Assembly (NCBI GenBank): GCA_028712565.1
Contig: JAQTPW010000001.1
Location: 2,653 to 66,652, forward strand
Length of the DNA: 64,000 nt
Origin: Minisyncoccota bacterium
Lineage (GTDB): Bacteria; Patescibacteriota; Minisyncoccia; Minisyncoccales; JAQTPW01
Direction of reading: 5' to 3'
Numbering within the stretch: position 1 is the first letter of the stretch; the number at the start of each line of letters is the position of its first letter. Under the pieces are notes generated by a model that worked only from the letters and a program-made list of their open reading frames with translations, was not told the origin of the DNA and did not search any database. The position numbers and the translations under genes were made by a program. Shown one piece after another: positions 3,186 through 53,335 of the stretch.

Positions 3186-3215
3186 CCGCCCTGAGTCACC
3201 CGAAGGGCGGTTTTT
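3186..3215. terminator. Rho-independent terminator hairpin
   Basis: CCGCCC (3186-3191) / GGGCGG (3205-3210), 13-nt loop TGAGTCACCCGAA, then T5. A-run upstream, so it could act on both strands. Confidence 0.7.
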
Positions 3216-3216
3216 G

Positions 3217-3246
3217 TTTACACTAAATTTGCTAAAGTGGTAGTAT
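3217..3246 (+). promoter_or_regulatory. Conserved promoter module (copy 2)
   Basis: TTTACA (3217-3222), 18 nt, TGG-TAGTAT (3241-3246). ATG at 3254, suggesting a leaderless or near-leaderless mRNA. Confidence 0.55.
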
Positions 3247-3253
3247 AAAATAT

Positions 3254-7204: not shown

Positions 7205-7809
7205 GTGTTAAAAATAAACAACTGAAAATAATTGGCATATCTGGAAGCCCAAGAGGACGGAATACAAATTATATGTTGCAGACGGTTTTGGATGCTTCGG
7301 GTTGTTATTACGAAATTATTTTGTTGAAGGATAAAAAAATAAAACCCTGCGCCGCTTGCGGCGGATGTTACAAATCGCACAAATGCGTTGTAAATGACGA
7401 TATGCAAGAATTGTATGAAAAATTACCAAAAGCCGATATTATTATTCTGGCCTCACCGACATTCTTCGCAAACGTTACTGGCATAATGAAAAATTTTATT
7501 GATAGGTGTTTGCCTTTATATCTTTCGGAAAAACTAAAAGGCAAAAAGGCAGTTTTGCTTACAGTTGGTAATTTCAGGAAGGATGAAGTGAGATATTTAG
7601 ATAATTTCGATATTGAAAAAGCAATGAAAAATCCTGCCAGTAGAAGGAAATTAGGAGAATCAATCCGAAGATGCTTGAATATAATGAAAATTTTTTGCCA
7701 AAAACATATGAAAATGAAAGTAATCGGAAGCGTTTATGTTATTAATGGAGATCCCGAATCAAAAAAGAAAGAATTAATAAAATTAGGAAGAATAATTGCA
7801 AATAAATAA
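7201..7809 (+). CDS. NAD(P)H-dependent FMN reductase / iron-sulfur flavoprotein-like
   Basis: 202 aa. ISGSPRGRNT.., a Cys cluster CAACGGCYKSHKC, and ..IIILASPTFFANVTG. Confidence 0.75.
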   Translation: MSVKNKQLKIIGISGSPRGRNTNYMLQTVLDASGCYYEIILLKDKKIKPCAACGGCYKSHKCVVNDDMQELYEKLPKADIIILASPTFFANVTGIMKNFIDRCLPLYLSEKLKGKKAVLLTVGNFRKDEVRYLDNFDIEKAMKNPASRRKLGESIRRCLNIMKIFCQKHMKMKVIGSVYVINGDPESKKKELIKLGRIIANK

Positions 7810-8553: not shown

Positions 8554-8589
8554 AAATCGTCCTTCGGCGCGGCTCAGGGCGGTTTTTTG

Positions 8590-8618
8590 TTTACACTGAA
8601 TATGGTTAGGTGTAAGAT
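8590..8618 (+). promoter_or_regulatory. Conserved promoter module (copy 3)
   Basis: GGCGGTTTTTTG-TTTACA (8590-8595), 17 nt, TAAGAT (8613-8618). It is followed by a 10-codon ORF only, and the HD gene starts at 8690. Confidence 0.45.
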
Positions 8619-8689
8619 AAAATATGTGGGAAAAAATGTTTTGCAAACTGGAATAACGAAAAAATAACTAAACACACAGCAAGAAATTT

Positions 8690-11130: not shown

Positions 11131-11661
11131 ATGAAAAAAATAATTATAATTATTATTGCTATATTCGTTTTAGGTTTTGGAGTTTTTGAATTAATAAATT
11201 TTAATAAAATGAAAAATCAAAATCAAAGCGAAAGTAAAAATGAGAATCAGTCGACCTCAACTGAAGAATCAGAAAGCGGCGCAACCACAACAGGAGAAGC
11301 AGAAAATAATCTTGTCGAAAATAAAAATTCTGCAAAAGAAGAATTAAAAATAGAGACATTAAGGCAGGGGACGGGAGCCGAAGCTAAAAATGGCGACAAC
11401 GTCAGGGTAGATTATATTGGTACGCTTGAAGACGGGACAAAATTTGATTCCAGTTATGACAGAGGAATGCCAATTTTGTTTACTTTGGGAAACGGTTCGG
11501 TAATTAAGGGATGGGAAATGGGAATTTTGGGGATGAAAGTCGGGGAGAAAAGGAGATTAACAGTTCCGCCAGATTTAGCTTATGGAGAATCGGGGTATCC
11601 CGGGGTGATTCCTCCAAATGCCACTCTTATTTTTGAAGTGGAATTAATAGGATTTAATTAA
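11131..11661 (+). CDS. FKBP-type peptidyl-prolyl cis-trans isomerase, membrane-anchored
   Basis: N-terminal TM helix. FKBP core ..VRVDYIGTLEDGTKFDSSYDRG..VIKGWEMGILGMKVGEKRRLTVPPDLAYG. Confidence 0.9.
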   Translation: MKKIIIIIIAIFVLGFGVFELINFNKMKNQNQSESKNENQSTSTEESESGATTTGEAENNLVENKNSAKEELKIETLRQGTGAEAKNGDNVRVDYIGTLEDGTKFDSSYDRGMPILFTLGNGSVIKGWEMGILGMKVGEKRRLTVPPDLAYGESGYPGVIPPNATLIFEVELIGFN

Positions 11662-11736: not shown

Positions 11737-13587
11737 ATGATTGAAAACCAGGATAGAAATACAAAAATTTTTTTGAATCTTAATCTTTTGCTCTGTTTTG
11801 TTTTAATCCAGATTTTGCTTGCCTATTGGTTTAAGATTTTTCCTTTGGAAGACAAAATTTTATTTATAATTTCCTTTGCCGCAACCCTGCCAGTTCTTTT
11901 TAGCGCCATAAACTCTCTGAAAAATAAAAAAATCTCCATTGATTTGTTAGCCAGCATTGCTTTAATAGTTTCCTTGGCAAAAAAAGAATGGCTGCCGGCG
12001 ATTTTTATAAATCTGATGGTAGCTTCCGCAAGGGCTTTTATGGATTACGTAAAAATCAGATCTCATTCTGCGATTGAAAGCTTAAGAAAATTAAAACCTC
12101 AAAATGTAAAAGTGGAAGAAAATGGAAAAATTATAGAAATGCCTTTAGAAGATGTAAAAGTAGGCAATAATATTGTTGTCGAATTGGGAGAATGCGTTCC
12201 GGTTGACGGATTTATCATAAAGGGGCAGGCGACTATTGACCAATCATCTTTGACAGGAGAGTCGGCTCCAGTTTTAAAAAAAGAAGGGGATAATATTTTA
12301 AGTTTTACCACTGTTTTGGCCGGGCATTTGGTAATTCGGGCAGAAAAAGTGGGAAAGGAAACAACTCTCGAAAAAATTATTGATTTAGTTGAGCAGTCGC
12401 AGAGCAACAAAGCCCCGATTTATTCTCTGATAGATAAATTTGCCAAGTGGTATATCTTTATTACTTTAGGAGGAGCTATCTTAATTTATTTAGTTTCAAA
12501 AAATACAGATTTAGTTGTGGGCCTTCTTTTGGTGAGTTGCGCAGATGATATTGCCGTGGCGACTCCCATGGCTTTAATGTCTGCTATTACTCACAGCGCA
12601 AGGCACGGAGCAATAATTAAAGGCGGAGATTATTTGGAGGGTTTGGCAAAACTGAAAACAATTGTTTTTGATAAAACCGGCACATTAACACAAGGAAAAT
12701 TAAAAATTGAAGAAATTGTTCCCCTTGGCAATAAAACTATAGACGAGATTTTAGAGGTGGCCGCTGTCGCTTCTTCCTGTTCCAGCCATCCGATTGCGCA
12801 CGCAATTATCAGCTATGCTCAGGAAAAAAATATTCCTATTGGAGAGCCGGAAAATTTCGAAGAGTATGGCGGAAAGGGCATGTCCGCATATTTTAAAGGA
12901 AAAATAATTCTAATAGGAAAATTGTCATTTTTCCAAGATTTAAAAATTAAAATTAGCCAGTCACAAATTTCCGAGATTAAAAAAAGAATATCAAACAGAT
13001 TTAATGTCAGCTTAGTTGCTTATGGAAACGAATTGGCAGGCTTTATTGATTTGGTTGATACGGTAAAACCACAGGTAAAAGAAACCATAGCAGAATTAAA
13101 AAAATTAGGCATAGAAAAAACTGTAATGTTAACCGGAGATAATGAGAGAGTCGCGCAAAAAGTAGCCGAGGAAACAGGGATTGATGAATTTTATGCAAAT
13201 CTCCTGCCGGGTGATAAACTCGAATATCTGAAAAAATTCTTAAACAAAAAATACAAAGTAGCTATGGTCGGGGATGGAGTAAACGACGCGCCGGGTTTGG
13301 CCCTGTCCGATGTGGGAATTGCAATGGGGGCGATAGGATCAGATGCATCTATAGAAGCGGCTGATATTGCTTTGATGAAAGATGATTTGTCTCAGGTCCC
13401 GGAATTGATTAAGATAGGCCGTTCTACTATGGGAGTGATAAAACAGAATATAATAATATGGGCAATTTTAAATGTTTTAGGTTTTATTTTAGTTTTCAGC
13501 CACGTCCTTAATCCTTCGGGAGCTGCAGCCTATAATTTTATTTGCGACTTCATCCCAATTTTTAATTCTCTTCGGTTATTTAGATAA
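11737..13587 (+). CDS. P1B-type (heavy-metal) P-type ATPase without N-terminal metal-binding domain
   Basis: 616 aa. DKTGTLT, TGDN, GDGVNDAP. The TM motif is VSCADD where CPC/CPx is usual. Confidence 0.85.
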   Translation: MIENQDRNTKIFLNLNLLLCFVLIQILLAYWFKIFPLEDKILFIISFAATLPVLFSAINSLKNKKISIDLLASIALIVSLAKKEWLPAIFINLMVASARAFMDYVKIRSHSAIESLRKLKPQNVKVEENGKIIEMPLEDVKVGNNIVVELGECVPVDGFIIKGQATIDQSSLTGESAPVLKKEGDNILSFTTVLAGHLVIRAEKVGKETTLEKIIDLVEQSQSNKAPIYSLIDKFAKWYIFITLGGAILIYLVSKNTDLVVGLLLVSCADDIAVATPMALMSAITHSARHGAIIKGGDYLEGLAKLKTIVFDKTGTLTQGKLKIEEIVPLGNKTIDEILEVAAVASSCSSHPIAHAIISYAQEKNIPIGEPENFEEYGGKGMSAYFKGKIILIGKLSFFQDLKIKISQSQISEIKKRISNRFNVSLVAYGNELAGFIDLVDTVKPQVKETIAELKKLGIEKTVMLTGDNERVAQKVAEETGIDEFYANLLPGDKLEYLKKFLNKKYKVAMVGDGVNDAPGLALSDVGIAMGAIGSDASIEAADIALMKDDLSQVPELIKIGRSTMGVIKQNIIIWAILNVLGFILVFSHVLNPSGAAAYNFICDFIPIFNSLRLFR

Positions 13588-14237: not shown

Positions 14238-15656
14238 ATGGCAAGGAAAAAGAAAAAAAATAAAAAGCGGGTTTTCGAAGGCAAAAAAGATTTGCCAGAA
14301 AGATTGGGTATGCCGGAAGTAAAAAATGAAGAGCCGAAAGTAAAAGCCACAAAAATCAGGGTAGTCGGAATTGGGGGCGGGGGAAGTTCAATTGTTTCAG
14401 AAATTGCTTCCAGAATAACAAAAGCTTCTTTTGTCGCGGCAAATACAGACAGCAAGGCATTGAAGGAGGTCAACAAAAATGTCATCCGTTTTCAATTTGG
14501 AGAAGATTTGACCCGAGGATTAGGAACGGGCATGAATCCGGAAATAGGCGAAACGGCGGCTTTGAACGAAAAAGATAAAATAAAAAATTTATTTGAAGGG
14601 CAGGATCTTTCAATAATAGTTGCTTGTTTGGGAAGCGGAACCGGGTCTGGAGCTGCTCCCATTTTTGCAAAAATTTCAAAAAATCTCGGAAATTTAACTT
14701 ACGGAATTTTCACTCTGCCTTTTGCTTTTGAAGGAGAAAAGAAAATGGCAATTGCCAAAGCTGCTTTGGAAAAAATAAAGCCGAGATTGCATGCGTTATC
14801 CGTAATACCCAATGAAAGGATTTTCCAAATTATCCAAAAAGAAACTCCACTGAGACAGGCCCTATCTGCAATAAATGACAGATTAGCTGCGGCTTTGGAG
14901 GGATTGATTGAAATAATTTACGACGTGGGTTTGATTAATATTGATTTTGCGGATTTCAGGACAATTTTGCAGGGGCAAGGAAGATTGGCATATTTAAATA
15001 CAATTCGAGTCCAGAAAAAAGAAGGAGCTGTCCAGGAAGCAATTGAAAAATTATTAAATTCACCGCTTTATCCTTACAGCATTAAAGGCGCAAAAAGCGT
15101 TTTATATAATATTGCCGGAGAAAAGGGGTTGACTTTGTCTGAAGTCAGCCAGATTTCAAAAACTATTTCTGAACTGGTAAACAAAGAGGCAAAAATTATT
15201 TTTGGGGTGTCGCAAAATCAAAAATTTGCAGGCGTAATCAAAACAACCTTGCTGGCAACTGGCTGCGGAAATAAAATTTTTGCGGGCGGGGGAAAAGAAA
15301 CCAGAAAAAAAACGAAAAAAAATTCGGGGAAAAAATCTGCGTCCGCCAAAACCATTGATTCTGCAGTTTCAGGCAAAAAGTCGCCAGAAAACAAGAAAAA
15401 AACAAATAAGAAGCCCAAAATAAATAAAAGAAGGGCAAAAAGATTCAAAGCCCCAAAAATTAAAATAATCCCTACTCCTGAAAATGAAATAGGAACCGAA
15501 GCAATTTTCACTTCTTTGGAAAATAAAAATGCACAAAAGGTGAGGAAAAACGCCCTCCAATTAAAAAAAGAAGCAGAAGCAGAAGAGGCAATAATGCTGG
15601 CTCGGGAGCAAGCTTGGGAAGTGCCGGCCTTTTTGAGGAGAAAAAAAATTATTTAA
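14238..15656 (+). CDS. ftsZ: Cell division protein FtsZ with long Lys-rich C-terminal linker
   Basis: GIGGGGSS, GLGTGMNPEIG, GSGTGSGAAP tubulin signature. About 120-aa K/S-rich tail, then a conserved C-terminal peptide ..WEVPAFLRRKK. Confidence 0.95.
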   Translation: MARKKKKNKKRVFEGKKDLPERLGMPEVKNEEPKVKATKIRVVGIGGGGSSIVSEIASRITKASFVAANTDSKALKEVNKNVIRFQFGEDLTRGLGTGMNPEIGETAALNEKDKIKNLFEGQDLSIIVACLGSGTGSGAAPIFAKISKNLGNLTYGIFTLPFAFEGEKKMAIAKAALEKIKPRLHALSVIPNERIFQIIQKETPLRQALSAINDRLAAALEGLIEIIYDVGLINIDFADFRTILQGQGRLAYLNTIRVQKKEGAVQEAIEKLLNSPLYPYSIKGAKSVLYNIAGEKGLTLSEVSQISKTISELVNKEAKIIFGVSQNQKFAGVIKTTLLATGCGNKIFAGGGKETRKKTKKNSGKKSASAKTIDSAVSGKKSPENKKKTNKKPKINKRRAKRFKAPKIKIIPTPENEIGTEAIFTSLENKNAQKVRKNALQLKKEAEAEEAIMLAREQAWEVPAFLRRKKII

Positions 15657-15671
15657 CTAGTTTTTTATTCC

Positions 15672-15694
15672 ACTGGCTCAAGGGCCAGTTTTTT
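15672..15694 (+). terminator. Rho-independent terminator of ftsZ
   Basis: ACTGGC-TCAAGG-GCCAGT followed by T6. Confidence 0.8.
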
Positions 15695-15696: not shown

Positions 15697-15840
15697 GCGC
15701 TTCGGGAAAGTAAGTTCTGGTACGCGCTTCGCTTGCCCAGCGTGCTCGCTCGCTCAGGTCCTCACCTCGCTCTTCCCTTCGGGAAACCATGCCCGCTCGG
15801 TTCCGGATCGTCCCAAAACTCACTTTCCCTCGCTTTGAAA
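15697..15840. repeat. GC-rich structured repeat, copy 1 (family 'R-eno/ftsZ')
   Basis: Outer arms GGGAAAGTAAGTTCTGG (15704-15720) and CCCAAAACTCACTTTCCC (15812-15829). The core shares a 36-nt identical block CCTCGCTCTTCCCTTCGGGAAACCATGCCCGCTCGG with 20788-20823. Confidence 0.85.
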
Positions 15841-16092
15841 AAGTGAAATGCGAAAGCGTGCCCCGAAAAGGCGGTTTTTGTTTTTGTGAAGGCTTGATTT
15901 TCCTTTCAAGTTTATTAAAATCTAAAATCATAGTAAATTAACAAATAAGGAGGAGTTAATGAGGATTGTAAACATTGAGAAGAATCGTCAAAGCCTCGCT
16001 ATTTTATGATGAGCGAAGACAAACAAATATGTAGACCTGCCTCGCTTATTTTTATTGTAAATTTAAATATGATAATATAGATAAATAAATAT

Positions 16093-18785: not shown

Positions 18786-19514
18786 ATGTTTGTATTCAGC
18801 ATTACCGGAGCTTCTTATTTATTTTTGTCTTTAGTATCGCTTCTTTGGATTTTTCGCATTTTCCAATTTTGGAGAAAAGAAAACACAATTGTTTCCCGCC
18901 TTCTTTTGCTGTATCTGATTTTTTTCCAGATTTTTTGCCTTATTACAACTTTAGGAGTGTTTTTTTTCGCAAAAAACAGCGGAGTTTTAAAATTAATAGT
19001 CGTTAACGCCAGTTTCGCCCAAGGATTAATGTCTGCCGTTCTCGGATATTTGATATTCCATTTGAAATTTCCAAAAATTTCTCCTTGGCTCGGATTTTTT
19101 ATTGTCTTTAGCATTGGTTTTGCCGGGGCTGTTTTGAGCTTTTTAAAAATCTCAAATCCTCAGCTTGAAGGCATTTCCGTAAACTGGGACATAGTTCCTA
19201 TTGCTGATATTTTAAGATTTTTGACCATAATGATAAGCATACTTCCGATGGGAATTATTTTAATTCAAGAAGGAAAAGGGGCAAAGGATCCAAAAATAAA
19301 AAACAGGTCTTATGGTTTGGCATTTCTGTTTTTTGCGGGATTGGTTGCAGCCGCAACCGGATTTTTCCTTGAGAAGTATTTGCGGTTTGGGGCAATAAGC
19401 TCTGACATTTCCATTTTCTTTTTAGGCCTTTCCTTATTAATAATATTTTTAATTACCCAAAAAAGGCAGTCCGATATTTATTTAAAGGAAATAAATGGCG
19501 AATTCAAATATTAA
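18786..19514 (+). CDS. Polytopic membrane protein, unknown function
   Basis: About 7 hydrophobic segments. ATG 18786 chosen (track start 18723 overlaps trxB). The 3' end overlaps eno by 20 nt. Confidence 0.6.
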   Translation: MFVFSITGASYLFLSLVSLLWIFRIFQFWRKENTIVSRLLLLYLIFFQIFCLITTLGVFFFAKNSGVLKLIVVNASFAQGLMSAVLGYLIFHLKFPKISPWLGFFIVFSIGFAGAVLSFLKISNPQLEGISVNWDIVPIADILRFLTIMISILPMGIILIQEGKGAKDPKIKNRSYGLAFLFFAGLVAAATGFFLEKYLRFGAISSDISIFFLGLSLLIIFLITQKRQSDIYLKEINGEFKY

Positions 19515-20736
19515 AGTCAAATTTATTTGTGCCCGGGAAATTTTGGATTCAAAAGGCATGCCGACAGTGGAAGCCGAGTTAAAAACAAATTCCGGCAATT
19601 TTTTGGCGTCCGTTCCTTCGGGAATTTCAACTGGAAAATATGAAGCCGCAGAACTAAGGGATTCAGATGGCAAAGGAGTAAAGAAAGCGATTGAAAACAT
19701 AGAAAAAATCATATCTCCTGCGCTGGAAAATGAGGATTTAAACGATCAAAAAAGAATTGATGAAATTTTAATTACTTTGGATGGGACTAAAAATAAATCT
19801 CGTTTGGGAGCCAATGCAATTTTGCCGGTTTCTATTGCAGTTTGCCGCGCGATTGCCTCTTCAAAAGCTATATCGCTTTATCAATATATTTCTGAAATTT
19901 CGGCAGATCCAATTATAAAACTTCCCAAGCCTTCTTTTAATATGATAGAAGGCGGAAAACATGCAAAATCGGGTTTGGCTTTCCAAGAGTTTATGGCAGT
20001 TCCGCAAAGCGAAAGTTTCAAAGAAAATTTGGAGGGAGGGAAAAAAGTATATAAAAAACTTGGAGAGATTTTAAATAATAAATTTCCTAAAGTAGAATTA
20101 AGCGCAGAAGGCGCATTTGCTTCACCAGAAAAGGAAATTTCGAAAGTTTTGGATTTGCTTTCAGAGGCCATAGAAGACGTTGGGAAAAAAGATATGGTAA
20201 AAATTGCAATTGATGCGGCCGCTTCAGAATTCTGCGAGAATGGAAATTATAAAATAGGGGATGAAATTATTTCTGGAAAAGAATTAGTCGAACTCTATAA
20301 GGGTTTGGCAAAAATTTATCCGATTATTTCAGTTGAGGATCCTTTTTTTGAAGAAGATTTTGATAATTTTTCGCAATTAAAAAAAGAAACTAATGATAAG
20401 TTTATAATTTTAGGCGACGATTTAACGGCGACAAATATTGAGAGAATAAAATTGGCAAAAGAAAAAGATGCGTGCTCGGGCTTGATTTTAAAGCCGAATC
20501 AGATTGGTTCAGTTACGGAAGCAATAGACGCGGCAAAACTGGCAAAATCCTTTGGCTGGAAAATTATGGTGGCAAATAGGGCAGGAGAAACAGAAGACAG
20601 TTTTATTGCTGACTTGGCAGTAGGAATTTCTGCAGATTTTATTAAGTCCGGCGCCCCTTTTCCAAAAGAACGAATGGCAAAATATGAAAGATTGGCGGAG
20701 ATAGAGAAAGAGGTAGTGGGCGCTTCGGGAATGTGA
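19495..20736 (+). CDS. eno: Enolase
   Basis: 413 aa. ..REILDSKGMPTVEAEL.., ..SVPSGISTGKYEA.., ..LILKPNQIGSVTE... The last codons (..ASGM*) lie inside the repeat arm 20727-20744. Confidence 0.93.
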   Translation: MANSNIKVKFICAREILDSKGMPTVEAELKTNSGNFLASVPSGISTGKYEAAELRDSDGKGVKKAIENIEKIISPALENEDLNDQKRIDEILITLDGTKNKSRLGANAILPVSIAVCRAIASSKAISLYQYISEISADPIIKLPKPSFNMIEGGKHAKSGLAFQEFMAVPQSESFKENLEGGKKVYKKLGEILNNKFPKVELSAEGAFASPEKEISKVLDLLSEAIEDVGKKDMVKIAIDAAASEFCENGNYKIGDEIISGKELVELYKGLAKIYPIISVEDPFFEEDFDNFSQLKKETNDKFIILGDDLTATNIERIKLAKEKDACSGLILKPNQIGSVTEAIDAAKLAKSFGWKIMVANRAGETEDSFIADLAVGISADFIKSGAPFPKERMAKYERLAEIEKEVVGASGM

Positions 20737-20858
20737 ATTTTGTCACACATTCGCTCGCCCAGCGCGCTCGCTCATTCATGTTCTCGCCTCGCTCTTCCCT
20801 TCGGGAAACCATGCCCGCTCGGCTCCGGATGGAGACAAAATTCACATTCCCTCGCTTA
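20721..20858. repeat. GC-rich structured repeat, copy 2 (family 'R-eno/ftsZ')
   Basis: Perfect 18-bp arms GGGAATGTGAATTTTGTC (20727-20744) / GACAAAATTCACATTCCC (20834-20851) around a core homologous to 15721-15811. Confidence 0.9.
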
Positions 20859-20986
20859 AAAAATATATTTTAAAACCTTATTGCTTCGCTTTTCAAATGT
20901 GACAATTCGCCGGCGAGGTGCTCCATTGAAAAGCTTCACCCTCGCTTGAGTAACGAAAAATTTATTGACTCGCTTTTTAAATTAAT

Positions 20987-21023
20987 CCGTTCCGGATGGA
21001 GACAAAATTCACATTCCCTCGCG
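20987..21023. repeat. Partial third copy (3' arm) of the same repeat
   Basis: TCCGGATGGAGACAAAATTCACATTCCCTCGC (20991-21022) duplicates 20824-20855 exactly. Degenerate CCTCGCT-containing fragments lie between the two. Confidence 0.85.
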
Positions 21024-38795: not shown

Positions 38796-38908
38796 TCGCT
38801 TCTCGCTATTGTTCAGTAAAATATAATCCGAATATCATTCGAATCGCATCCGAATGCTTCGAATATTAATTAGGAGATTCGGATTATAGATCAATAGCGA
38901 GCAGCGAT
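38796..38908. repeat. Palindromic repeat E1 (TCCGAAT-rich), homologous to an insertion in 23S
   Basis: Arms TCGCTTCTCGCTATTG (38796-38811) / CAATAGCGAGCAGCGA (38893-38908). The interior (ATAATCCGAATATCAT.., ATCCGAATGCT.., AGATTCGGATT) matches 46333-46479. Confidence 0.85.
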
Positions 38909-39250: not shown

Positions 39251-40620
39251 TTTTTTTGAGGATTTGATCCTGGTCCAGGATGAACGCTGGCGGCGTGGAT
39301 AAGGCATGCAAGTCGTGCGGCCTGAGTCGCAAGACGAAGGCAGCGGCAAACGGGTTAATAACACGTAGATTACCAACCCCAATCACGGGCATAATCCGCC
39401 GAAAGGCGGACTAATTCCCGATGGTCCGCGCGGGCGTAAGCTTTGCGCGGTAAAGACGTAAGTCGGAATGGGATGGGTCTGCGGCCCATCAGCTAGTTGG
39501 TGAGGTAAAGGCCCACCAAGGCGATGACGGGTAGGGGGGATGAGAGTCTATTCCCCAACAAGGACACTGCGACACGGGTCCTACTCCTACGGGAGGCAGC
39601 AGTCGAGGATATTCGGCAATGGGCGAAAGCCTGACCGAGCGACGCCGCGTGAACGAAGAAGGACTTCGGTCTGTAAAATTCTTTTCTAGGGGATGAACCC
39701 GCAAGGGTGACAGTACCCTAGGAATAAGGGGGTGCAAATTCTGTGCCAGCAGCCGCGGTAAGACAGAACCCCCAAGCGTTATCCGGATTTATTGGGCGTA
39801 AAGGGTCCGTAGGTGTCCCATCGCATCTTTTGTTAAACTTTCAAGGCTCAACCTTGGAAATGCGAAAGACATGGATGGGATTGAGGGCATTAAGGGCTGA
39901 TGGAACGGTCGGTGTAGGGGTGAAATCCGTTGATATCGATCGGAACACCAAAAGCGAAAGCATTCAGCTAGGGTGACCCTGACACTGAGGGACGAAAGCG
40001 TGGGGAGCAAAAAGGATTAGATACCCTTGTAGTCCACGCTGTAAACAATGAACACTAGCTATCTGAAGTGTCGACCCTTCGGGTGGCGAAGCCAACGCAT
40101 TAAGTGTTCCGCCTGGGAAGTACGATGGCAACATTAAAACTCAAAGGAATAGACGGGGACTCACACAAGCGGTGGATCATGTGGCTCAATTCGACAACAA
40201 ACGAGGAACCTTACCAGGACTTGAAAAGCTAGTGAAATCCGCCAGAAACGGCGGACTACCCACAAGGACACTAGCCCAGGTGCTGCATGGTTGTCGTCAG
40301 CTCGTACTCTGAAGCGTACGCTTAAGTGCGATAACGAGCGCAACCCTTATTGTTTGTTTTATTTGTCAAACGAAACCGCCCGCGATAAGCGGGAGGAAGG
40401 TAAGGATGACGCCAAATCAGCACGGCCCTTTGATGTCCTGGGCTGCACACATGATACAATGGGGCTGACAATGGGTTGCCAAGCCGTAAGGCGGAGCTAA
40501 TCCCATCAAACGGTCCCTCAATTCGGATTGAGGTCTGCAACTTGACCTCATGAAGCCGGAATCGCTAGTAATCGCCAATCAGCTATGTGGCGATGAATAT
40601 GTTCCTGAGTCTTGTACTCA

Positions 40621-41480
40621 CAATAAAAGCGCTCGGCAGTTTATTTTTCTATGCGGTTAAAATCCGCGCCTCTAGCCGTCCTAGAGAGTAGCCAAAGGAT
40701 AGTTTGTTACCGCGAGGTAATAAGCGAAGGATTCGGCGGCAAAAGACAGCCCGAACAAAAAAAGGCAAACCGACCCATCAATGAGCGGTGAGGATGGGGA
40801 AGGTCAAAGTAAAGCCTGTTTGGGATGCCCGGAAGAGAAAATTAAATAACCCGAGGAGATCTGACGTTGTTGCCATGAAAATTGCATGGTATAATGAACT
40901 TACGCAGCGTCAGAAGTCAGCTGAATCATAGTAACCTGAGTCCTAAATTTATAAAAGGACAAAGGAGAAGGATTCACTCTAGTAATTATGCTTAATCCTA
41001 ATTATATCGTAGGTTTAGTTGATGGAGAGGGAAGCTTTACGGTGTACGTAAGGCAACCTAATTCTGCCAAGAAAGTAAAACGAAGAGCGAGAGCGGAACC
41101 AAGATTTTATCTGAAACTTATAGAGAAAGATAAAGATATTCTCTATATGATCAAAAGATTCTTTTCTTGCGGAAGCGTTTATTTCCAGAAAGATAATCGT
41201 ATAAACCATCAAAATTGTTATCGATACGAAGTGGCAAACAGAAAAGATTTGGAAGAAATTATTATTCCTTTTTTCAAACGGCATCAACTGAAATTATTGT
41301 CGAAGAAAAAAGATTTCCGGATTTTCTGTGAATTAATGAGAAGAATTAAAAAAGGAGAACATCATACGAAATTAGGATTACGGCATTTATATCTTATAAA
41401 ACAAGGTATGCATTAGAGCTCGTCGCATGCGGGAAATCTGCAGGTGCGATGGGAACATCAACTCTAAGTTCGTAGAGGAT
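40621..41480 (+). mobile_element. Intron (probably group I) in 16S at the site equivalent to E. coli ~1395-1400
   Basis: Conserved ..CTTGTACTCAC stops at about 40621 and ..CTCGCCCGTCACGCC resumes at about 41482. The junction is ambiguous over a repeated ACTC (+/-6 nt). The insert carries a LAGLIDADG ORF. Confidence 0.8.
40988..41416 (+). CDS. LAGLIDADG homing endonuclease (single-motif, I-CreI-like)
   Basis: 142 aa. ..NYIVGLVDGEGSF.. motif, basic DNA-binding saddle. Located inside the 16S intron. Confidence 0.88.
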   Translation: MLNPNYIVGLVDGEGSFTVYVRQPNSAKKVKRRARAEPRFYLKLIEKDKDILYMIKRFFSCGSVYFQKDNRINHQNCYRYEVANRKDLEEIIIPFFKRHQLKLLSKKKDFRIFCELMRRIKKGEHHTKLGLRHLYLIKQGMH

Positions 41481-41804
41481 ACTCGCCCGTCACGCCAAGC
41501 GAGCTGGGAATAGCCAAAGTTCTCCGCAAGGAGACCTAAGCTGGGCTCAGTGAGAGGGGCGAAGTCGTAACAAGGCACGCGTAGGGGAACCTGCACGTGG
41601 ATAAATTATTTTTTTCTAGTATTTCTTAATGAGATACTAGAGTCGACTAAAGTTGAAGGGCGAAAATTTTCTCTTTAACTTTAAGGTGTTAATCTCTAAC
41701 CTAAAATAAAGATTCCTTGGTCTCGCGGAACGAGACCCGGGACAACTCTAAAGGACTAAATCGTGGAAACTAGTAACTGGTTTACTAGTAACTAGTAACA
41801 AACT

Positions 41805-41824
41805 TCGGGCATTGCCCGATTTTT
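41805..41824 (+). terminator. Terminator-like hairpin after the 16S trailer
   Basis: TCGGG-CATTG-CCCGA followed by T5. Lies just past the processing stem. Confidence 0.55.
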
Positions 41825-41860
41825 GGTTTGATAGAAGTTCGGGTTTGGCGATATACCCGT

Positions 41861-41896
41861 ATATTATTAACATAGCTATCGCTTGGTTAGTAATAT
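41861..41896 (+). promoter_or_regulatory. Conserved hairpin/promoter-like motif, copy A (ATAGCTATCGC family)
   Basis: ATATTATTAAC-ATAGCTATCGCTTG-GTTAGTAATAT. Can also be read as TTAACA, 18 nt, TAATAT. Confidence 0.55.
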
Positions 41897-41902
41897 TCTG
41901 TA

Positions 41903-41999
41903 TTAGTTGGTAATTTTAATGTTTTGGTTTGGCGATTCGAAAGTAAGGTCCTAGCCAGTCCAAGGAGAGATTTCCAATTATTTCTCCTTTTTCTTTTTA
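41903..41999 (+). ncRNA. Candidate small RNA (about 95 nt) between motif A and a terminator
   Basis: Lies downstream of the -10-like TAATAT (41891-41896). Ends in a 9-bp hairpin AAGGAGAGA/TTTCTCCTT (41962-41989) followed by TTTTCTTTTT. No family recognised. Confidence 0.25.
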
Positions 42000-42091
42000 A
42001 TAATTTTTTAATCTTAAAATTATAAGCTATAAGTGGGTTCTATCTTTGCCCAGAGTCCGATTTTTATAACACTAAATCTCCTCCCTTTATC

Positions 42092-42124
42092 GGGGCGGGC
42101 GGCAAATCGCGCGCCGCCCGCCCC
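42092..42124. other. Extreme GC hairpin
   Basis: GGGGCGGGCGGC-AAATCGCGC-GCCGCCCGCCCC, a perfect 12-bp G/C stem in otherwise AT-rich DNA. Confidence 0.85.
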
Positions 42125-42236
42125 CAAAAGCCCTTTAAAAATTTATATGGTGGAGAAAAATTCGCAGTTCGGCCGTATACGATCAAAGAGCAGGTCTGTC
42201 CGAAAGAACCATTACCTAATAAGGATAAATAGTTCC

Positions 42237-42287
42237 GCTATAGCTCAGCGAATCCGCGGAAACTCTAGTTAACCGCGGCTCCACCGA
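42237..42287 (+). pseudogene. tRNA-Ala-like relic (internally deleted)
   Basis: GCTATAGCTCAGC ... CCGCGGCTCCACC resembles the 5' (GGGGCTATAGCTCAGC) and 3' (..GCTCCACCA) ends of bacterial tRNA-Ala. The middle is replaced by a CCGCGG-N13-CCGCGG hairpin. Confidence 0.35.
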
Positions 42288-42300
42288 CCCGAAAATCGTA

Positions 42301-42335
42301 AGCCAGATGAATCAATCTTCGATTCCTGGCTTTTG
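42301..42335 (+). terminator. Rho-independent terminator
   Basis: AGCCAG..GAATC..GATTC..CTGGCT followed by TTTTGTGTTTTT. Confidence 0.6.
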
Positions 42336-42400
42336 TGTTTTTAGAGATAAATTATCGCAAAAATTTTTCCATTTTTTTTGCTACAATATCTGTAGCACCA

Positions 42401-42437
42401 TATATTATTAATATAGCTATCGCCTAGATAATAATAT
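42401..42437 (+). promoter_or_regulatory. Conserved hairpin/promoter-like motif, copy B
   Basis: TATATTATTAAT-ATAGCTATCGCCTAG-ATAATAATAT. Confidence 0.55.
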
Positions 42438-42614
42438 TTGATATTTACTGATTAAAATTAGTGATGTTTTATTGTAGCTTGTTTTTTTAATTATTTTTTG
42501 TTAAAATCTTAAATTGAAAGTTAAATTTTCTATATGCCCCGCAGTAGAATTTTGAACCCTACGGAGGCGTATAAAATTTTTTCTAAATTTTAATTCAAAA
42601 TTCACTGACAGGGT

Positions 42615-43082
42615 ATGCAAATACCGGCAAAAATTTTAAAATTCTTGGATTCGAAAAAGATAAAATATGTTGTAATAAATCATAGGACAGTTTATACTGC
42701 TTATGATAAAGCCACGACGTTGAAGGTGAAACCGAATGTGATTGGAAAGACACTGGTTTTGAAAATAGATTCCAACTTAATTATGGTTTTGGTGCCGGGA
42801 AATAAAAATTTGGATTTGTCAAAAATAAAAAAAGCAGTTGGTGTCCAAAAAATTAATATAGTTTCTGAAACGATTATAAAAAATAAATTCAAGGGAATAA
42901 AAATCGGCGCGATTCCGCCAGCGGCGGAAATTTGGAAATTACGGATATTTATTGATAATAATTTGATGAAAGAAAAAAATATTTTTGTAAATTCGGGAAT
43001 TTACGAAGCATCATTCAAATTATCGCCAAAAGTTTTCGAAAAGTTGGGAGCGGTCGTGGGAAATTTTGGCAAACCCCGTTAG
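42615..43082 (+). CDS. YbaK/ProX-type aminoacyl-tRNA trans-editing (deacylase) domain protein
   Basis: 155 aa. ..VIGKTLVLKID..LIMVLVPGNKNLDLSKIKK.. layout of the YbaK family. The stop codon TAG lies inside the arm of repeat T2 (CCCCGTTAG). Confidence 0.65.
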   Translation: MQIPAKILKFLDSKKIKYVVINHRTVYTAYDKATTLKVKPNVIGKTLVLKIDSNLIMVLVPGNKNLDLSKIKKAVGVQKINIVSETIIKNKFKGIKIGAIPPAAEIWKLRIFIDNNLMKEKNIFVNSGIYEASFKLSPKVFEKLGAVVGNFGKPR

Positions 43083-43185
43083 AAGTTTTGCTAAGATCTG
43101 TGGTAGATTTATAATTTTAAAGATCAAATCGGCTCCGCCTTAAGTAAGATTTTATAAAAAATCTTTAGCGGAACTTCTAACGGGG
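43074..43185. repeat. Inverted-repeat element T2 (CCCCGTTAGAA family)
   Basis: Arms CCCCGTTAGAAGTT (43074-43087) / AACTTCTAACGGGG (43172-43185). Inner hairpin AAGATTTT-ATAA-AAAATCTT. Confidence 0.88.
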
Positions 43186-43305
43186 CAAAGCTAAAAAATA
43201 AAATTTGGGCGGAACGTAAAATCGCTTTGCGATTAACGTTCCAGCCCCGTGAATTTTCAAGATCAAATTTTAAGGGCGATTAGCTCAGCTGGTTAGAGCG
43301 CGTCA

Positions 43306-43456
43306 ATGCTTAATTGATTTTCATAAGCGAGAAAACGGGGGCGTGTAGCTCAGTTGGTTAGAGCACGTCACTGATAATGACGGGGTCAGAGGTTCGAGTC
43401 CTCTCATGCCCACTCTCGCTTATGAAAATCAATTATCCGACGAGCGTAGTGAGGAG
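43306..43456 (+). other. Intervening sequence: 22-bp perfect helix capped by a whole tRNA gene
   Basis: TAATTGATTTTCATAAGCGAGA (43311-43332) is the exact reverse complement of 43414-43435. tRNA-Ile (43339-43412) sits between the two arms. Confidence 0.85.
43339..43412 (+). tRNA. tRNA-Ile (anticodon GAU)
   Basis: Acceptor GGGCGTG/CATGCCC, D stem GCTC/GAGC, anticodon stem CGTCA/TGACG with loop CT-GAT-AA, T arm AGAGG-TTCGAGT-CCTCT, discriminator A. No CCA. Confidence 0.9.
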
Positions 43457-43503
43457 ATCATAATGACGAGGTCAATGGTTCGAGTCCATTATCGCCCACA
43501 AAG

Positions 43504-43575
43504 GGGCCTGTAGTTCAGTGGTAGAACACCCGGTTTGCATCCGGGAGATCGGGAGTCCAAATCTCCCCGGGTCCA
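43504..43575 (+). tRNA. tRNA-Ala (anticodon UGC)
   Basis: Acceptor GGGCCTG/CGGGTCC with G3:U70, D stem GTTC/GAAC, anticodon stem CCCGG/CCGGG with loop TT-TGC-AT, T arm GGGAG-TCCAAAT-CTCCC (unusual C55). Confidence 0.8.
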
Positions 43576-43613
43576 CCGAGTCAAACTCGGTTTGACCGAG
43601 TCAAACTCGGTTT
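43576..43613 (+). terminator. Two tandem identical terminator hairpins
   Basis: CCGAGT-CAA-ACTCGG-TTT repeated at 43576-43593 and 43596-43613. Confidence 0.7.
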
Positions 43614-43701
43614 ACGAGTTTGCGAGGTAGGCAAGTCAGACTTGCCACAATATTTTATAGCAATACCATTTGCAACGTTAGACGTTGCATAAAAAAGAAA
43701 A

Positions 43702-43731
43702 TTTTTCATATTTATTTTTATACAAAAAATC
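43702..43731. repeat. Left copy of a ~26-30-bp direct repeat bracketing the two orphan genes
   Basis: TTTTTCATA..TTTTATACAAAAAATC. The 16-mer TTTTATACAAAAAATC (43716-43731) is identical to 44841-44856. Both copies are followed by a hairpin plus T-run. Confidence 0.75.
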
Positions 43732-43878
43732 ATCCTTCGACACGGCTCAAGATGTTTTTTTATTCTTGACAAACTAAGCTCTGTACGGGGGAATAAAATC
43801 TGATATGATTTTACTAACGAGTTAAGCTCGTTAAAATAAAAAAATTGGGAGATAAATTTTTTATCTCGGGAGGAAAAA

Positions 43879-44364
43879 ATGAATGAGTTGGCTAATGTAA
43901 CTGACGCAAGAATTAACCAGATTGCTTTAGGTACCATGGGTATTTTTTTGAGGGAACATCCCGTTCCGGAAGATGAAAATAAGTACAAGATGTTTGTGGG
44001 CATATACCAGATGTGTGAGGGTATGTGTAAGGAATGGGAAATGGCAGAGATTAAGGTGACCCCCAGCGAACTTCTTGAAGTTTTCTCGTATGTAGTAGGT
44101 GGCGGAAGCGAGGTAATTTCCGACAGGATGGGACAGATCGCAAACGCCTTCATGAGTATTAAATTGCGAGAAAAGAATCGAGGGGAAGTTGAGGGCGTCA
44201 AACATGTAATTGTCAAATATGTCTGCCCAAAGCCTGAAATGACAAGGATAAATGCCTTGCCTGAAGAACTTTTCGCGGCATATATGCGGATCCGTGTAAA
44301 AATTCTTCGGCACGAGAAGAATCAACCACTTTCCGTCGGGAGCTCCAATAGGAGCGAGAGTTAA
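43879..44364 (+). CDS. Hypothetical protein (orphan), strong SD
   Basis: 161 aa. GGGAGG lies 7 nt upstream of the ATG. By eye, local GC is higher than in the flanks, and long antisense ORFs are probably a by-product of this. No motif recognised. Confidence 0.55.
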   Translation: MNELANVTDARINQIALGTMGIFLREHPVPEDENKYKMFVGIYQMCEGMCKEWEMAEIKVTPSELLEVFSYVVGGGSEVISDRMGQIANAFMSIKLREKNRGEVEGVKHVIVKYVCPKPEMTRINALPEELFAAYMRIRVKILRHEKNQPLSVGSSNRSES

Positions 44365-44570
44365 AAAAAAGATTTAATTTCAAAAAGTCTTAGAAAAAAG
44401 TCCTTAGGGTTCAAAAACTCTTTGGACTTTTTCATTTGTGAAAAATTTGTTTACTTAAGCTTAAAAAAATACGCTCTATACAGGGCAAAGAGAATTTGCT
44501 ATATTGTATTAACGAGCTAAAAGAGCTTATTTTATAAAGGTCGCGGTAATTAAAAAATTTTTATATTCAT

Positions 44571-44825
44571 ATGGCAAAAGCTAATTCAGCATTTATGAAG
44601 CCAATGAAAGTCAGCGAAGATTTATCAGCTGTCGTCGGCAAAGGCCCCCTTCCAAGATCCGAAGTTGTTAAGAAACTTTGGGCATACATTAAGAAGAACG
44701 GCCTTCAGGATGCAAAGAATAAACGCAATATTAACGCTGATGCTAATTTGAAAAAAGTTTTCGGCGGAAAAGGGACAGTTAATATGTTTGAGATGACAAA
44801 GCTTGTTTCAAAGCATCTTTCATAA
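44571..44825 (+). CDS. SWIB/MDM2 domain protein
   Basis: 84 aa. ..LSAVVGKGPLPRSEVVKKLWAYIKKNGLQD..NINADANLKKVFG.. is the typical SWIB core. Confidence 0.85.
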   Translation: MAKANSAFMKPMKVSEDLSAVVGKGPLPRSEVVKKLWAYIKKNGLQDAKNKRNINADANLKKVFGGKGTVNMFEMTKLVSKHLS

Positions 44826-44830
44826 GCCAG

Positions 44831-44876
44831 TTTTTCATTATTTTATACAAAAAATCCGTTGTAAGGCGGATTTTTT
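44831..44876. repeat. Right copy of the direct repeat, plus terminator hairpin
   Basis: TTTTTCATTATTTTATACAAAAAATC, then CCG-TTGTAAG-CGG within AATCCG..CGGATT, then T6. Confidence 0.75.
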
Positions 44877-44996
44877 GTTGGAGAAAGATAAGTTTTCCAC
44901 AGCCGGGCTTTTATGTTTTTGCATACACTGTATAATAGACTAATGACAAAAAAGGTCGAATAAATTGTTATAATAAAACCTTAAATTTAATAAACT

Positions 44997-45689
44997 ATGT
45001 TTTTTCAAAATTTAGGAATATCAATTAGCGACGCTCTGATAAATATCTGGAATAGATTTATAAATTTTGCTCCAAATATCATAGTGGCAATAATTATTTT
45101 TGTTATTGGCTGGTTTATTGCGCTTTTTGTTGGAAAATTAATTGCTGAAATCCTAAAGAGATTGAAATTCAATGAGATTTTTGAGAAAGGAAATTGGGAT
45201 GAGGCACTGGCAAAAGCTGATATTAAAGTAGATGTATCTGAGTTTATTGGAGCTATTTTCAAATGGGTTTTAGTGATTGTTTTTCTTCAGCTTTCAGTTG
45301 GTCTTTTGGGTTGGATGCAATTTACCTTGCTTTTGGATAAAATTATAAATTATCTTCCGCATGTAATAGTTGCGGCTTTGATTTTTGTTGTTACAGTTGT
45401 GGTTGTTGATATTGTTGAAAAGTTAGTCAGGGTTACCGTAGAAAGAATGAAAGTGGGCTATGGCCAGACAGTTAGCGCGGTTGTCAGGTGGGCGATTTGG
45501 ACTTTTGCAATTCTGATGATTTTACGGGAATTGATTATTGTGCCTGCATTTATTGACACGATATTTAACGCAATGATTTATGGGACAGTGGCATTTTTGG
45601 TGATATCTTTTGGGCTTTCATTTGGCTTGGGCGGGAAGGAGGCTGCGGCAAAAATGATTGAAGAATTAAAGAGCAAAATTGCAAGATAG
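44997..45689 (+). CDS. Membrane protein with conserved-TM-helix repeats (mechanosensitive-channel-related family)
   Basis: 230 aa, 4-5 TM segments, with repeated ..II.F.IGW..A..VGK.. type helices. Confidence 0.5.
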   Translation: MFFQNLGISISDALINIWNRFINFAPNIIVAIIIFVIGWFIALFVGKLIAEILKRLKFNEIFEKGNWDEALAKADIKVDVSEFIGAIFKWVLVIVFLQLSVGLLGWMQFTLLLDKIINYLPHVIVAALIFVVTVVVVDIVEKLVRVTVERMKVGYGQTVSAVVRWAIWTFAILMILRELIIVPAFIDTIFNAMIYGTVAFLVISFGLSFGLGGKEAAAKMIEELKSKIAR

Positions 45690-45713
45690 GTTTCTTTATT
45701 AATGTGCATAACC

Positions 45714-45740
45714 AATGCCGCCCTCTTCGGGGGCGGCATT
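45714..45740 (+). terminator. Strong hairpin (no clear T-run)
   Basis: AATGCCGCCC-TCTTCGG-GGGCGGCATT, 10-bp perfect stem. Confidence 0.5.
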
Positions 45741-45753
45741 GTATATTGCGGGC

Positions 45754-45781
45754 TTGACACGCACTTTTGTTTTGCTAATAT
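45754..45781 (+). promoter_or_regulatory. Sigma70-like promoter upstream of 23S
   Basis: TTGACA (45754-45759), 16 nt including TGC, then TAATAT (45776-45781). Confidence 0.55.
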
Positions 45782-46731: not shown

Positions 46732-46770
<39 letters not shown>

Positions 46771-46828
46771 CAGGGAGGTGATCCCGGTGAAATAGAAACT
46801 GAAACCATATGCTCACAAAAAGTTCGAG

Positions 46829-49125: not shown

Positions 49126-49156
<31 letters not shown>

Positions 49157-53304: not shown

Positions 53305-53335
53305 CACATACGGTTAATTAACTACAAAATAACAA

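Follow-up and report, generated by a model that had tools for sequence, protein, structure and literature searches.

A family of structured, probably mobile non-coding elements in a housekeeping gene cluster of Patescibacteria

Small palindromic elements that combine a folded structure with an intergenic location are known from several groups of genomes. Enterobacterial repetitive intergenic consensus (ERIC) sequences, also termed intergenic repeat units (IRU), are imperfect palindromes of about 127 bp in which the two ends form a long hairpin, and they are transcribed from intergenic positions, often inside operons. They are conserved in sequence, including their ends, occur in both orientations and genome-wide, are co-transcribed with their neighbours and vary in presence between related strains. 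Rickettsia palindromic elements (RPE) and the GC clusters and double-hairpin elements of fungal mitochondria are small palindromic selfish elements of reduced or AT-rich genomes, which lie between genes and also, in frame, in tolerant parts of proteins; we know of no report of a conserved three-way junction, or of confinement to one operon, for RPE or GC clusters. The genomes of candidate phyla radiation (CPR) bacteria, or Patescibacteria, are tiny and streamlined, and the general view is that they contain few repeats and little mobile DNA. Here, we analyse a 64,000-nt stretch of contig JAQTPW010000001.1 from a Minisyncoccota bacterium (hereafter, the window), which carries two copies of a GC-rich element, one downstream of ftsZ and one at the end of eno. 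We find that these copies belong to a previously undescribed family of structured, non-coding, GC-rich sequences of about 135–185 nt in Pacebacteria-like CPR bacteria. Presence and absence at corresponding sites, nesting, decay and similarity across distant hosts suggest that the family probably consists of insertion elements that are carried along in the transcript of one conserved gene cluster.

Two copies in the window

The element was originally predicted, from the letters of the window alone, as a pair of copies of about 140 nt with a shared core and a 36-nt identical block. In the alignment, copy 1 (15697–15840) and copy 2 (20720–20860) are 88–91% identical, and both have a G+C content of 55–60% in a window of about 37% G+C. 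The exact 36-nt block occurs in the window only at 15765–15800 and 20787–20822, with none expected in 100 shuffles. The complementary arms that close each copy pair as predicted, at 18 of 18 positions in copy 2 and 15 of 17 in copy 1, where the two exceptions are A·C mismatches, and in this closing stem (P1) the copies differ by changes on both sides at three positions (AU/UA, GC/AU and GC/UA), where at least two had been claimed. Shuffled sequences fold less stably than either copy (z = −2.5 for copy 1, z = −5.1 for copy 2). A scan with the covariance model of the family described below, with filters off, returned no full copy in the 64 kb other than these two.

The flanking genes, FtsZ (14238–15656) and enolase (19495–20736), are both confirmed by Pfam. 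The enolase reading frame ends at 20736, inside the 5′ arm of copy 2, in agreement with the original prediction. Copy 1 does lie downstream of ftsZ, as had been stated, but ftsZ has its own terminator-like hairpin (15672–15689), which intervenes between the gene and the copy, and the next gene begins 256 nt further on. A Logan unitig from SRR22315508 with an identical ftsZ stops exactly 30 nt into the shared block; a break at k − 1 bases is what a repeat is expected to cause in a k = 31 assembly graph.

Both copies are trailed by pieces of themselves. The motif CCTCGCT has 10 sites in the window, against 4.2 expected, and seven of these, all of them + strand sites, are grouped at the two copies or after them. 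The degenerate fragments that had been noted after copy 2 are present, although they are better described as a series of 3′-end fragments: four follow copy 2, with ends TCGCT or TCGCG, and two more follow copy 1 (Table 1). The duplicate of the 3′ arm that had been placed at 20991–21022 is exact from 20991, with similarity starting at 20986. We infer that the two window copies arose by a recent duplication within the genome and represent a somewhat degenerate subtype. Downstream of copy 1, a strong Shine–Dalgarno-like AAGGAGG precedes by 6 nt the ATG of a 16-codon open reading frame (ORF), MRIVNIEKNRQSLAIL (window 15940–16010), which crosses one of the CCTCGCT fragments; an obvious Shine–Dalgarno sequence is rare here, most genes examined being without one.

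A family in related genomes

To define the family, we compared the window with 80 metagenome loci of related CPR bacteria, collected around enolase homologues of 46–67% identity and designated here by L and a number. Nucleotide searches with blastn found diverged copies in four of the 80 loci. A first covariance model (R1), whose P2 pairing was taken from RNAalifold on six sequences, gave 14 matches and missed half of the family. A second model (R2), built from eight well-formed members with the window copies excluded, gave 31 matches at E < 1e-3, corresponding to 22 distinct sequences, and all 31 lie on the strand of the flanking genes. Although derived from relatives only, R2 recognizes both window copies (Table 1). 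By contrast, exact 20-mers of the shared block had just two chance matches in GTDB genomes, in a spirochaete and a Novosphingobium, and zero matches in JGI metagenomes; exact-word searches fail because the element evolves too fast. The window copies are nearest to the member in L049, whose enolase is just 51% identical to that of the window.

Architecture and covariation

The element forms a three-way junction comprising the closing stem P1 and two hairpins, P2 and P3, bounded by conserved termini, 5′ TCGCTCGG(G/C)AA and TT(C/G)CCTCGCTT 3′. P1 extends over 17–24 bp, and its sequences are unrelated between genomes. P2 is a hairpin of 10–14 bp with the loop CCAGCGA, built on stems such as GCGAC/GUCGC, CCCGAU/AUCGGG and AAUUUUC/GAAAAUU, among others. 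Between P2 and P3 runs a conserved segment ending in UYCUCG. P3 starts from a base UYC/GRA, continues into a variable stem of 7–10 bp (for example GGCAAAUU/AAUUUGCC, GGCCUAUUG/CAAUAGGCC or GUCCCGCC/GGCGGGAC), and beyond this stem has an optional apical hairpin and a 3′-side bulge, ACCRUGC. The 3′ junction reads YGCGRA. The termini and junction sequences are conserved throughout, whereas the loops CCAGCGA and ACCRUGC are conserved in the main subtype only. In subtype B (L006-13198, L029, L042 and L056) the termini, P1 and the junctions are kept and long AT-rich loops replace both conserved loops; in the somewhat degenerate subtype formed by the window copies and L049, P2 and P3 contain 2 × 2 pyrimidine mismatches that stem from a recurrent CTCGCT motif.

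The stems are maintained by paired changes. In the model alignment, 88% of paired cells are complementary, compared with 61% in shuffles, and both partners have changed in 21 of the 23 model pairs. Covariation scores 0.54 in the alignment; shuffles give 0.15, with 0 of 500 as high as the observed value, and slid partners give 0.07–0.14. The P2 and P3 stems may be wholly different between two members and still pair at 9–11 of 11 positions. P1 contains 464 Watson–Crick positions and 29 transition mismatches across the family. Such nearly pure Watson–Crick stems are unusual for an RNA under compensatory change and are a better fit to a DNA palindrome or a templated single strand.

Position in a conserved gene cluster

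The relatives share a conserved, co-directional gene order, ftsZ-galU-nnrD-trxB-...-eno-pgm-dsbA-like-grx-gapdh. In most of them, eno and pgm, and likewise grx and gapdh, abut or overlap (for example ATGGCTAA). Loci that bear the element have instead gaps of 134–236 nt, essentially all of which is element. Often the upstream ORF continues into the 5′ arm, so that enolase acquires new residues at its C terminus; beyond the 3′ terminus, the following gene usually starts within 15 nt. Six different junctions are occupied across the family (Table 1), the slot directly after the conserved end of eno being the most used. All matches lie in or beside the ftsZ–gapdh cluster, although this cluster makes up less than half of the DNA sampled: about 447 kb in the loci and 54 kb in the window fall outside it; three matches that were scored as outside belong to the same neighbourhood, just past the detectable markers. 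At the grx/gapdh junction of L017 (9659–9805) we observed a different GC-rich insertion of 144 nt, with several short hairpins and the motifs CCTTCGCTT and CCCTTCGG, which the family model did not recognize.

Insertion, decay and transfer

Comparison of corresponding sites revealed filled, empty, scarred and deleted alleles. At grx/gapdh, within flanks that are about 93–95% identical, the element is complete in L007, absent from L009, whose empty site measures 7 nt, and reduced in L006 to a 37-nt scar in which a 5′ end is joined to a 3′ end. Likewise, the full element of L036 corresponds in L046, from the same metagenome and with flanks about 99% identical, to a 103-nt deletion that leaves just the first 33 nt. 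In L069 and L070, an older copy has lost its interior and a complete copy is nested between its paired arms, and in L019, L041 and L056 5′ fragments lie upstream of a full copy. The family thus shows presence/absence polymorphism, several copies and no coding capacity, as small non-coding insertion elements do.

Element similarity does not follow host similarity. L019 and L032, from one metagenome and with different downstream genes, carry elements that are about 96% identical, whereas the identity of their eno genes is 63% over the DNA and 29% at four-fold sites, and the high similarity ends at the element boundaries. L006 and L007 have elements 95% identical, against 57% at four-fold sites. 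Furthermore, the element of L009 has P1 and P2 in common with those of L005, L006 and L007 and an entirely different, perfectly paired P3 stem, which points to modular exchange. The decoupling from the host indicates horizontal movement, and the allelic states, the nesting and the decay are those of inserted DNA.

A related mini-element of about 48 nt was also observed. It consists of a hairpin, GAAGAGGA-TAAA-TCCTCTTC, followed by CCCTTCGCT and, directly adjoining, TCGCTCGGGTA, and its sequence holds a 3′-end-to-5′-end junction of the terminal motif of the main element. It lies in frame in the C-terminal linker of FtsZ, as a tandem duplicate in L006, and in frame in gpm of L008 and L010, where it adds 16 residues (VKEDKSSFPPFAVARV in L008).

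Searches against known classes

No described family accounts for the element. A scan of the whole window with Rfam 15 gave nothing overlapping the copies at gathering thresholds, and searches at E ≤ 10 on each of the two copies and at E ≤ 1 on seven loci that hold well-formed members gave nothing relevant; signals for SRP RNA, 6S RNA, RNase P RNA and known ribozymes were absent from these Rfam results. Blastn gave no element match in phages or plasmids, and a gapped pattern scan of IMG/VR gave 15 chance matches, zero of which were confirmed by the model. A sensitive blastn search of 5,426 Escherichia coli genomes with a well-formed member found no match, which argues against membership in ERIC/IRU. 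Our search of the literature on RNA motifs, miniature inverted-repeat transposable elements (MITEs), repetitive extragenic palindromes (REPs) and palindromic elements in CPR bacteria found nothing relevant.

Individual classes were also rejected on structure. The element is not protein-coding: the two copies differ by an indel that shifts the frame, and reading frames are not conserved. A minus-strand ORF across copy 1 matched only itself in the protein database, namely PHF44_00125, a spurious ORF of the same metagenome-assembled genome. A classical MITE does not match arms that pair within a copy yet differ almost completely between genomes, with only about 8–10 nt conserved at each end. Neither copy is an intrinsic terminator; the scan flagged the ftsZ hairpin and neither element, P1 being followed by UCGCUU without a U-tract. 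The TCGCTCGG and CCTCGCTT ends, with syntenic housekeeping neighbours, exclude an integron attC site, and the same ends on a 135–185-nt three-way junction, with no Y1 transposase seen among the annotated ORFs, exclude a REP of the kind mobilized by REP-associated tyrosine transposases (RAYTs). Differences between copies are not A-specific, as the template and variable repeats of a diversity-generating retroelement would require. A CsrA site in GCGGAUG was dismissed on finding GCGAAA instead in half of the members, and an origin of P1 by insertion into the loop of a pre-existing hairpin was dismissed on finding the conserved termini outside P1. Arrays of tandem interspaced guide RNAs (TIGR) consist of tandem units of about 36 nt, in which 8–12-nt repeats alternate with 9-nt spacers, and are associated with a Nop-domain tas gene (PMC12045711); the present units are single and 140 nt long, with no Nop-domain gene nearby.

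Interpretation

We consider it probable that the family represents undescribed, folded, non-coding insertion elements of the palindromic MITE, ERIC or RPE type, which are non-autonomous, selfish and co-transcribed with their operon. The original prediction had offered a REP- or MITE-like repeat with a maintained hairpin as one of two options, and this option accords with the allelic states, the nesting and the terminal fragments, as well as with the excess of element similarity over host similarity and the near-pure Watson–Crick stems. Neither the uncompensated decay of the arms nor the random orientation that had been named as counter-evidence was found, covariation being strong and orientation uniform. 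On the evidence above, the elements insert, turn over and decay in the intercistronic junctions of one cluster and also move between genomes. An enzyme encoded elsewhere probably recognizes the termini and the folded junction on a single strand; recognition of this kind would explain why structure and loops are conserved and stem sequences are not. As a non-coding insertion, the element would be tolerated, and pairing in P1 would restore the proximity of the upstream stop and downstream start codons in the operon mRNA, so that polycistronic expression could survive, possibly with translational coupling.

Several points weigh against this interpretation. Copy number is low, and a generic MITE should scatter, so that confinement to a single cluster could mean a function tied to the operon. 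Functional RNAs, too, are classically marked by conserved junctions and loops combined with covarying stems. No gene for a transposase, recombinase or reverse transcriptase was seen beside any copy or among the 30 annotated ORFs of the window, the remaining window ORFs and most ORFs of the relatives' loci being unscanned, and no autonomous parent with the same ends and a transposase was found beside the copies or among those 30 ORFs. A target-site duplication is not shown either: TCGCT stands at both ends of nearly all copies, whichever slot they occupy, and it is part of the element, since empty sites lack it; no further duplicated sequence is apparent. Finally, the sample is biased, every locus being centred on eno.

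Uniform orientation, together with the way in which the element fills its whole gap, with the stop codon at or inside the 5′ arm of P1 and the start codon close behind the 3′ terminus, could also be expected of a selected, cis-acting module in the + strand RNA of the operon, spreading because it is useful. Its role might lie in segmental mRNA stability or processing, as a REP/ERIC-like stabilizer or an RNase III-type site, or in the translational coupling of eno–pgm and grx–gapdh. Restriction to one cluster rich in glycolytic genes, strong covariation with conserved junctions and loops, and conservation exceeding that of the four-fold sites of eno also agree with such a module. We nevertheless regard it as unlikely. 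Most relatives do without the element and keep overlapping stop and start codons, and the L036/L046 pair includes a strain-level deletion allele. On the + strand, G·U pairs are nearly absent (9, against the 464 Watson–Crick positions of P1), and the conserved termini give U·C and C·U mismatches. Copy 1 stands after a terminator and far from the next gene, the mini-element carries the same motif in frame inside coding regions, and identity of about 96% between elements whose hosts have enolase proteins 57% identical argues for transfer rather than constraint. A small selfish DNA element therefore fits better than a purpose-built RNA regulator. The other option of the original prediction, a 3′-untranslated-region stabilizer or terminator-insulator, is not supported in that form: copy 1 lies beyond the ftsZ terminator, no U-tract follows the stem, the element of the relatives is intercistronic, usually with a start codon shortly after it, and the weak strand signals favour the strand antisense to the genes. 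The element may still affect the operon mRNA, since it must be co-transcribed. Its location before gapdh (five loci), two unrelated kinds of phosphoglycerate mutase (His_Phos_1 and metalloenzyme) and galU, with a conserved three-way junction close to start codons, might also suggest a metabolite-sensing riboswitch or protein-binding leader for downstream sugar-metabolism genes (gapdh, pgm and galU), a proposal that we find highly improbable: a near-perfect P1 of 17–24 bp is far too stable for a switching helix, there is no alternative expression platform, other copies precede genes for membrane proteins, nnrD, trxB and dsbA-like genes, the would-be aptamer loops turn into long AT-rich loops in subtype B, the element's presence varies between close relatives, and no Rfam family matches it.

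The strand on which the element acts is a separate question. The functional molecule could be the complement of the mRNA strand: a small RNA antisense in cis, or single-stranded DNA (ssDNA), for instance complementary DNA (cDNA) copied from the operon transcript or an intermediate in transposition. Its fold would include tandem G·A pairs and GAA or GAAA loops. On this strand the fold is more stable in 20 of the 22 distinct members. The termini form a 5′-CGAG-3′/3′-GAGC-5′ tandem G·A motif, so that the closing outer pairs contribute −2.7 kcal/mol, compared with −0.6 on the + strand; the same CGAG/CGAG motif accounts for the seemingly mismatched P2 and P3 of the window copies, and the apical loops of P3 become C-GAA-G or C-GAAA-G. 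Among transition mismatches, as read on the + strand, A·C outnumbers G·U (20 to 9), and one promoter-like site on the minus strand faces copy 2 (20896 to 20867). The asymmetry, however, does not reach significance (p = 0.06 over all mismatches; 14 versus 8, p = 0.29, for isolated ones), the lower energy of the G-rich strand is partly an effect of composition, C exceeding G on the + strand in 21 of the 22 members, and with DNA energy parameters the two strands do not differ. Furthermore, no conserved antisense promoter or terminator exists, the sequence beyond the termini being unconserved and often consisting of the first codons of the next gene, and neither a reverse transcriptase gene nor one for a Y1 transposase was seen among the 30 annotated window ORFs or in the copy neighbourhoods. 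Because every copy is co-oriented with its operon, + strand RNA must in any case be made. A functional complementary strand is, on these grounds, quite improbable. A bolder variant, which we hold to be a tentative and rather unlikely possibility, is a site-specific mobile element with a new mechanism, whose active form is the folded single strand complementary to the operon mRNA (cDNA or ssDNA). One of its arms would serve as template for the other, regenerating stems that are perfect yet free to vary, and the element would home to intercistronic sites of one conserved housekeeping operon and pass from one co-occurring CPR species to another. An equally tentative possibility is that the element is a truly functional structured nucleic acid that serves the expression of the ftsZ–eno–gapdh cluster.

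A folded, horizontally moving element that lands repeatedly in a few stop/start junctions of a core operon, sometimes rewriting the C terminus of enolase, would, if confirmed, constitute an unrecognized layer of genome dynamics in CPR bacteria and a natural marker of gene flow between co-occurring species. Its combination of RNA-like conservation, Watson–Crick stems and restriction to one cluster offers a tractable case for studying structure-recognizing mobilization enzymes or operon RNA modules, in bacteria that cannot yet be cultured alone. In practical terms, the element breaks short-read assemblies and yields spurious ORF calls such as PHF44_00125.

Other features of the window

The rRNA operon (39252–49486) is interrupted by protein genes (Table 1). 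Its 23S gene exceeds the model length by about 280 nt, and the interval between tRNA-Ile and tRNA-Ala holds a second version of the 3′ half of tRNA-Ile at 80% identity (43460–43499). Four copies of a 48-nt AT-rich palindromic repeat, TATATTATTAACATAGCTATCGC..., occur in both orientations in intergenic positions near this operon and the PBP2 gene. Short CCGAAT/TTCGAAT or ATTCGTA repeat blocks are found upstream of 16S (38799–38871) and near the 5′ end of 23S (46340–46412); blocks of the same type occur in L019 (about 11390–11470) and L029 (about 7245–7290 and 13190–13247), where they precede gpm, nnrD and gapdh, and these may be promoter- or operator-like repeats. A terminator-like block, GGGCGGTTTTTGTTTACAC, followed by a conserved GTGGTAGAAT-like sequence, stands after three genes (1318–1367, 3201–3250 and 8574–8623); it may combine a terminator and a promoter in a shared module. 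A GC-rich 42-nt tandem repeat, CCCGCCTTCGCGAGGCCGAAGCTCGCTACGGCGAGGCAAAGG (59622–59705), is in frame in a DegT/DnrJ aminotransferase ORF (59267–60739) whose Pfam match falls in three stretches, and it may be another in-frame GC-rich palindromic insertion. Finally, a 37-nt repeat (60702–60738 and 61277–61313; 95% identical) brackets a 176-residue ORF (60750–61280).

Table 1 Coordinates and contexts of the element, its fragments and other features (window positions unless a locus is named)
Feature	Location	Strand	Remarks
Copy 1, full element between ftsZ (with terminator) and galU	15698–15837	+	R1 E = 7e-29; R2 E = 4e-13
Copy 1, P1 5′ arm GGGAAAGTAAGTTCTGG	15704–15720	+	15/17 pairs with 15813–15829
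Copy 1, P1 3′ arm	15813–15829	+	Followed by conserved 3′ terminus TCGCTT, 15830–15835
Copy 1, conserved P2 loop CCAGCG	15737–15742	+	Aligned to CCAGCGA of 17 family members
Copy 1, conserved P3 bulge ACCATGC	15786–15792	+	Inside 36-nt block 15765–15800
Copy 2, full element overlapping and directly following eno end	20721–20859	+	R1 E = 3e-29; R2 E = 1.5e-11
Copy 2, P1 5′ arm	20727–20744	+	18/18 pairs with 20834–20851; eno stop TGA at 20734–20736
Copy 2, P1 3′ arm	20834–20851	+	Followed by 3′ terminus TCGCTT, 20852–20857
3′-end fragment 1, CCTTATTGCTTCGCTT	20876–20892	+	Like 3′ end of L069-type copies, CTTATTGCCTCGCTT
3′-end fragment 2, GCGAGGTGCTCC...CACCCTCGCTT	20913–20947	+	Homologous to outer 3′ remnant in L069/L070
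3′-end fragment 3, TTATTGACTCGCTT	20962–20975	+	
3′-end fragment 4, ends TCGCG	20986–21022	+	35/37 duplicate of copy 2 3′ junction and 3′ arm
Two CCTCGCT 3′-end-like fragments downstream of copy 1	15994–16000, 16040–16046	+	
Terminator-like hairpin and T-run after ftsZ	15672–15689	+	Upstream of copy 1, outside the element
Junction eno / next gene			About 13 distinct cases; next gene a His_Phos_1 mutase, metalloenzyme-type mutase or membrane protein
Junction grx / gapdh			5 cases
Junction gpm / dsbA-like	L006		
Junction galU / nnrD	L029		
Junction nnrD / trxB	L056 group		
Junction ftsZ / galU	Window copy 1		
Mini-element	L005 1–60		
Mini-element	L006 1975–2065, 2285–2325		
Mini-element	L007 2440–2490		
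Mini-element	L009 2235–2285, 2480–2580		
Mini-element	L008 2330–2385		
16S rRNA	39252–40651		rRNA operon
LAGLIDADG endonuclease ORF	40988–41416		rRNA operon
tRNA-editing-domain ORF	42615–43082		rRNA operon
tRNA-Ile and tRNA-Ala	43339–43577		rRNA operon
Mechanosensitive-channel ORF	44997–45689		rRNA operon
23S rRNA	46065–49273		rRNA operon
5S rRNA			rRNA operon, after 23S
AT-rich palindromic repeat, four copies	41857–41904, 42398–42445, 52674–52721, 53333–53380		

Comparison with known systems

The element shares single properties with integron attC sites and retrons. Like attC sites, it combines a conserved structure with free sequence, lies at the 3′ end of genes and may fold on one specific strand; in contrast to attC sites, its ends lack the R″/R′ core sites (RYYYAAC/GTTRRRY), and its neighbours are syntenic housekeeping genes, not cassettes. 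With the msr-msd region of retrons it has in common a closing inverted repeat around internal hairpins and, possibly, a structural signal on the cDNA strand. Unlike in attC and retron systems, an integrase or reverse transcriptase gene was not seen adjacent to it.

REPs and bacterial interspersed mosaic elements (BIMEs), which are associated with RAYTs and single-strand transposition of the IS200/IS605 type, resemble it in a short conserved terminal motif, strict orientation and the clustering and nesting of copies, and probably in a recognition that depends on structure instead of stem sequence. REPs, however, are simple hairpins of 20–40 nt tagged GTAG or CGTC (PMC3733652). The present element carries neither tag, no RAYT or TnpA gene was seen, and its weak strand signals are opposite to the strand expected for insertion into the lagging-strand template.

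Correia elements, or NEMIS, of Neisseria and MITEs in general are likewise non-autonomous, 100–160 bp long, flanked by terminal inverted repeats and co-transcribed as hairpins in mRNA. MITEs, however, have conserved terminal repeats and target duplications such as TA, whereas the arms of the element are variable and a duplication is not demonstrable; MITEs are also scattered in hundreds of copies, compared with two per 64 kb here. Mycobacterial interspersed repetitive units (MIRUs) are similarly intercistronic in operons, follow gene orientation and overlap the stop and start codons of their neighbours with their ends, although they are direct tandem repeats encoding short peptides rather than palindromic folded sequences.

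The likeness to the selfish palindromes of reduced genomes is of another kind. The related mini-element, in frame in ftsZ and gpm, recalls RPE, and an island of about 55–60% G+C in a window of about 37% recalls the mitochondrial GC clusters, the hosts and sequences being different in both cases. ERIC is matched in size, in the hairpin formed by the ends, in the intercistronic site, in presence and absence and in co-transcription. Where ERIC is conserved along its sequence and spread in both orientations across the genome, the element conserves about 8–10 nt at each end together with its junctions, lets its stems vary and occupies a single cluster in a single orientation.

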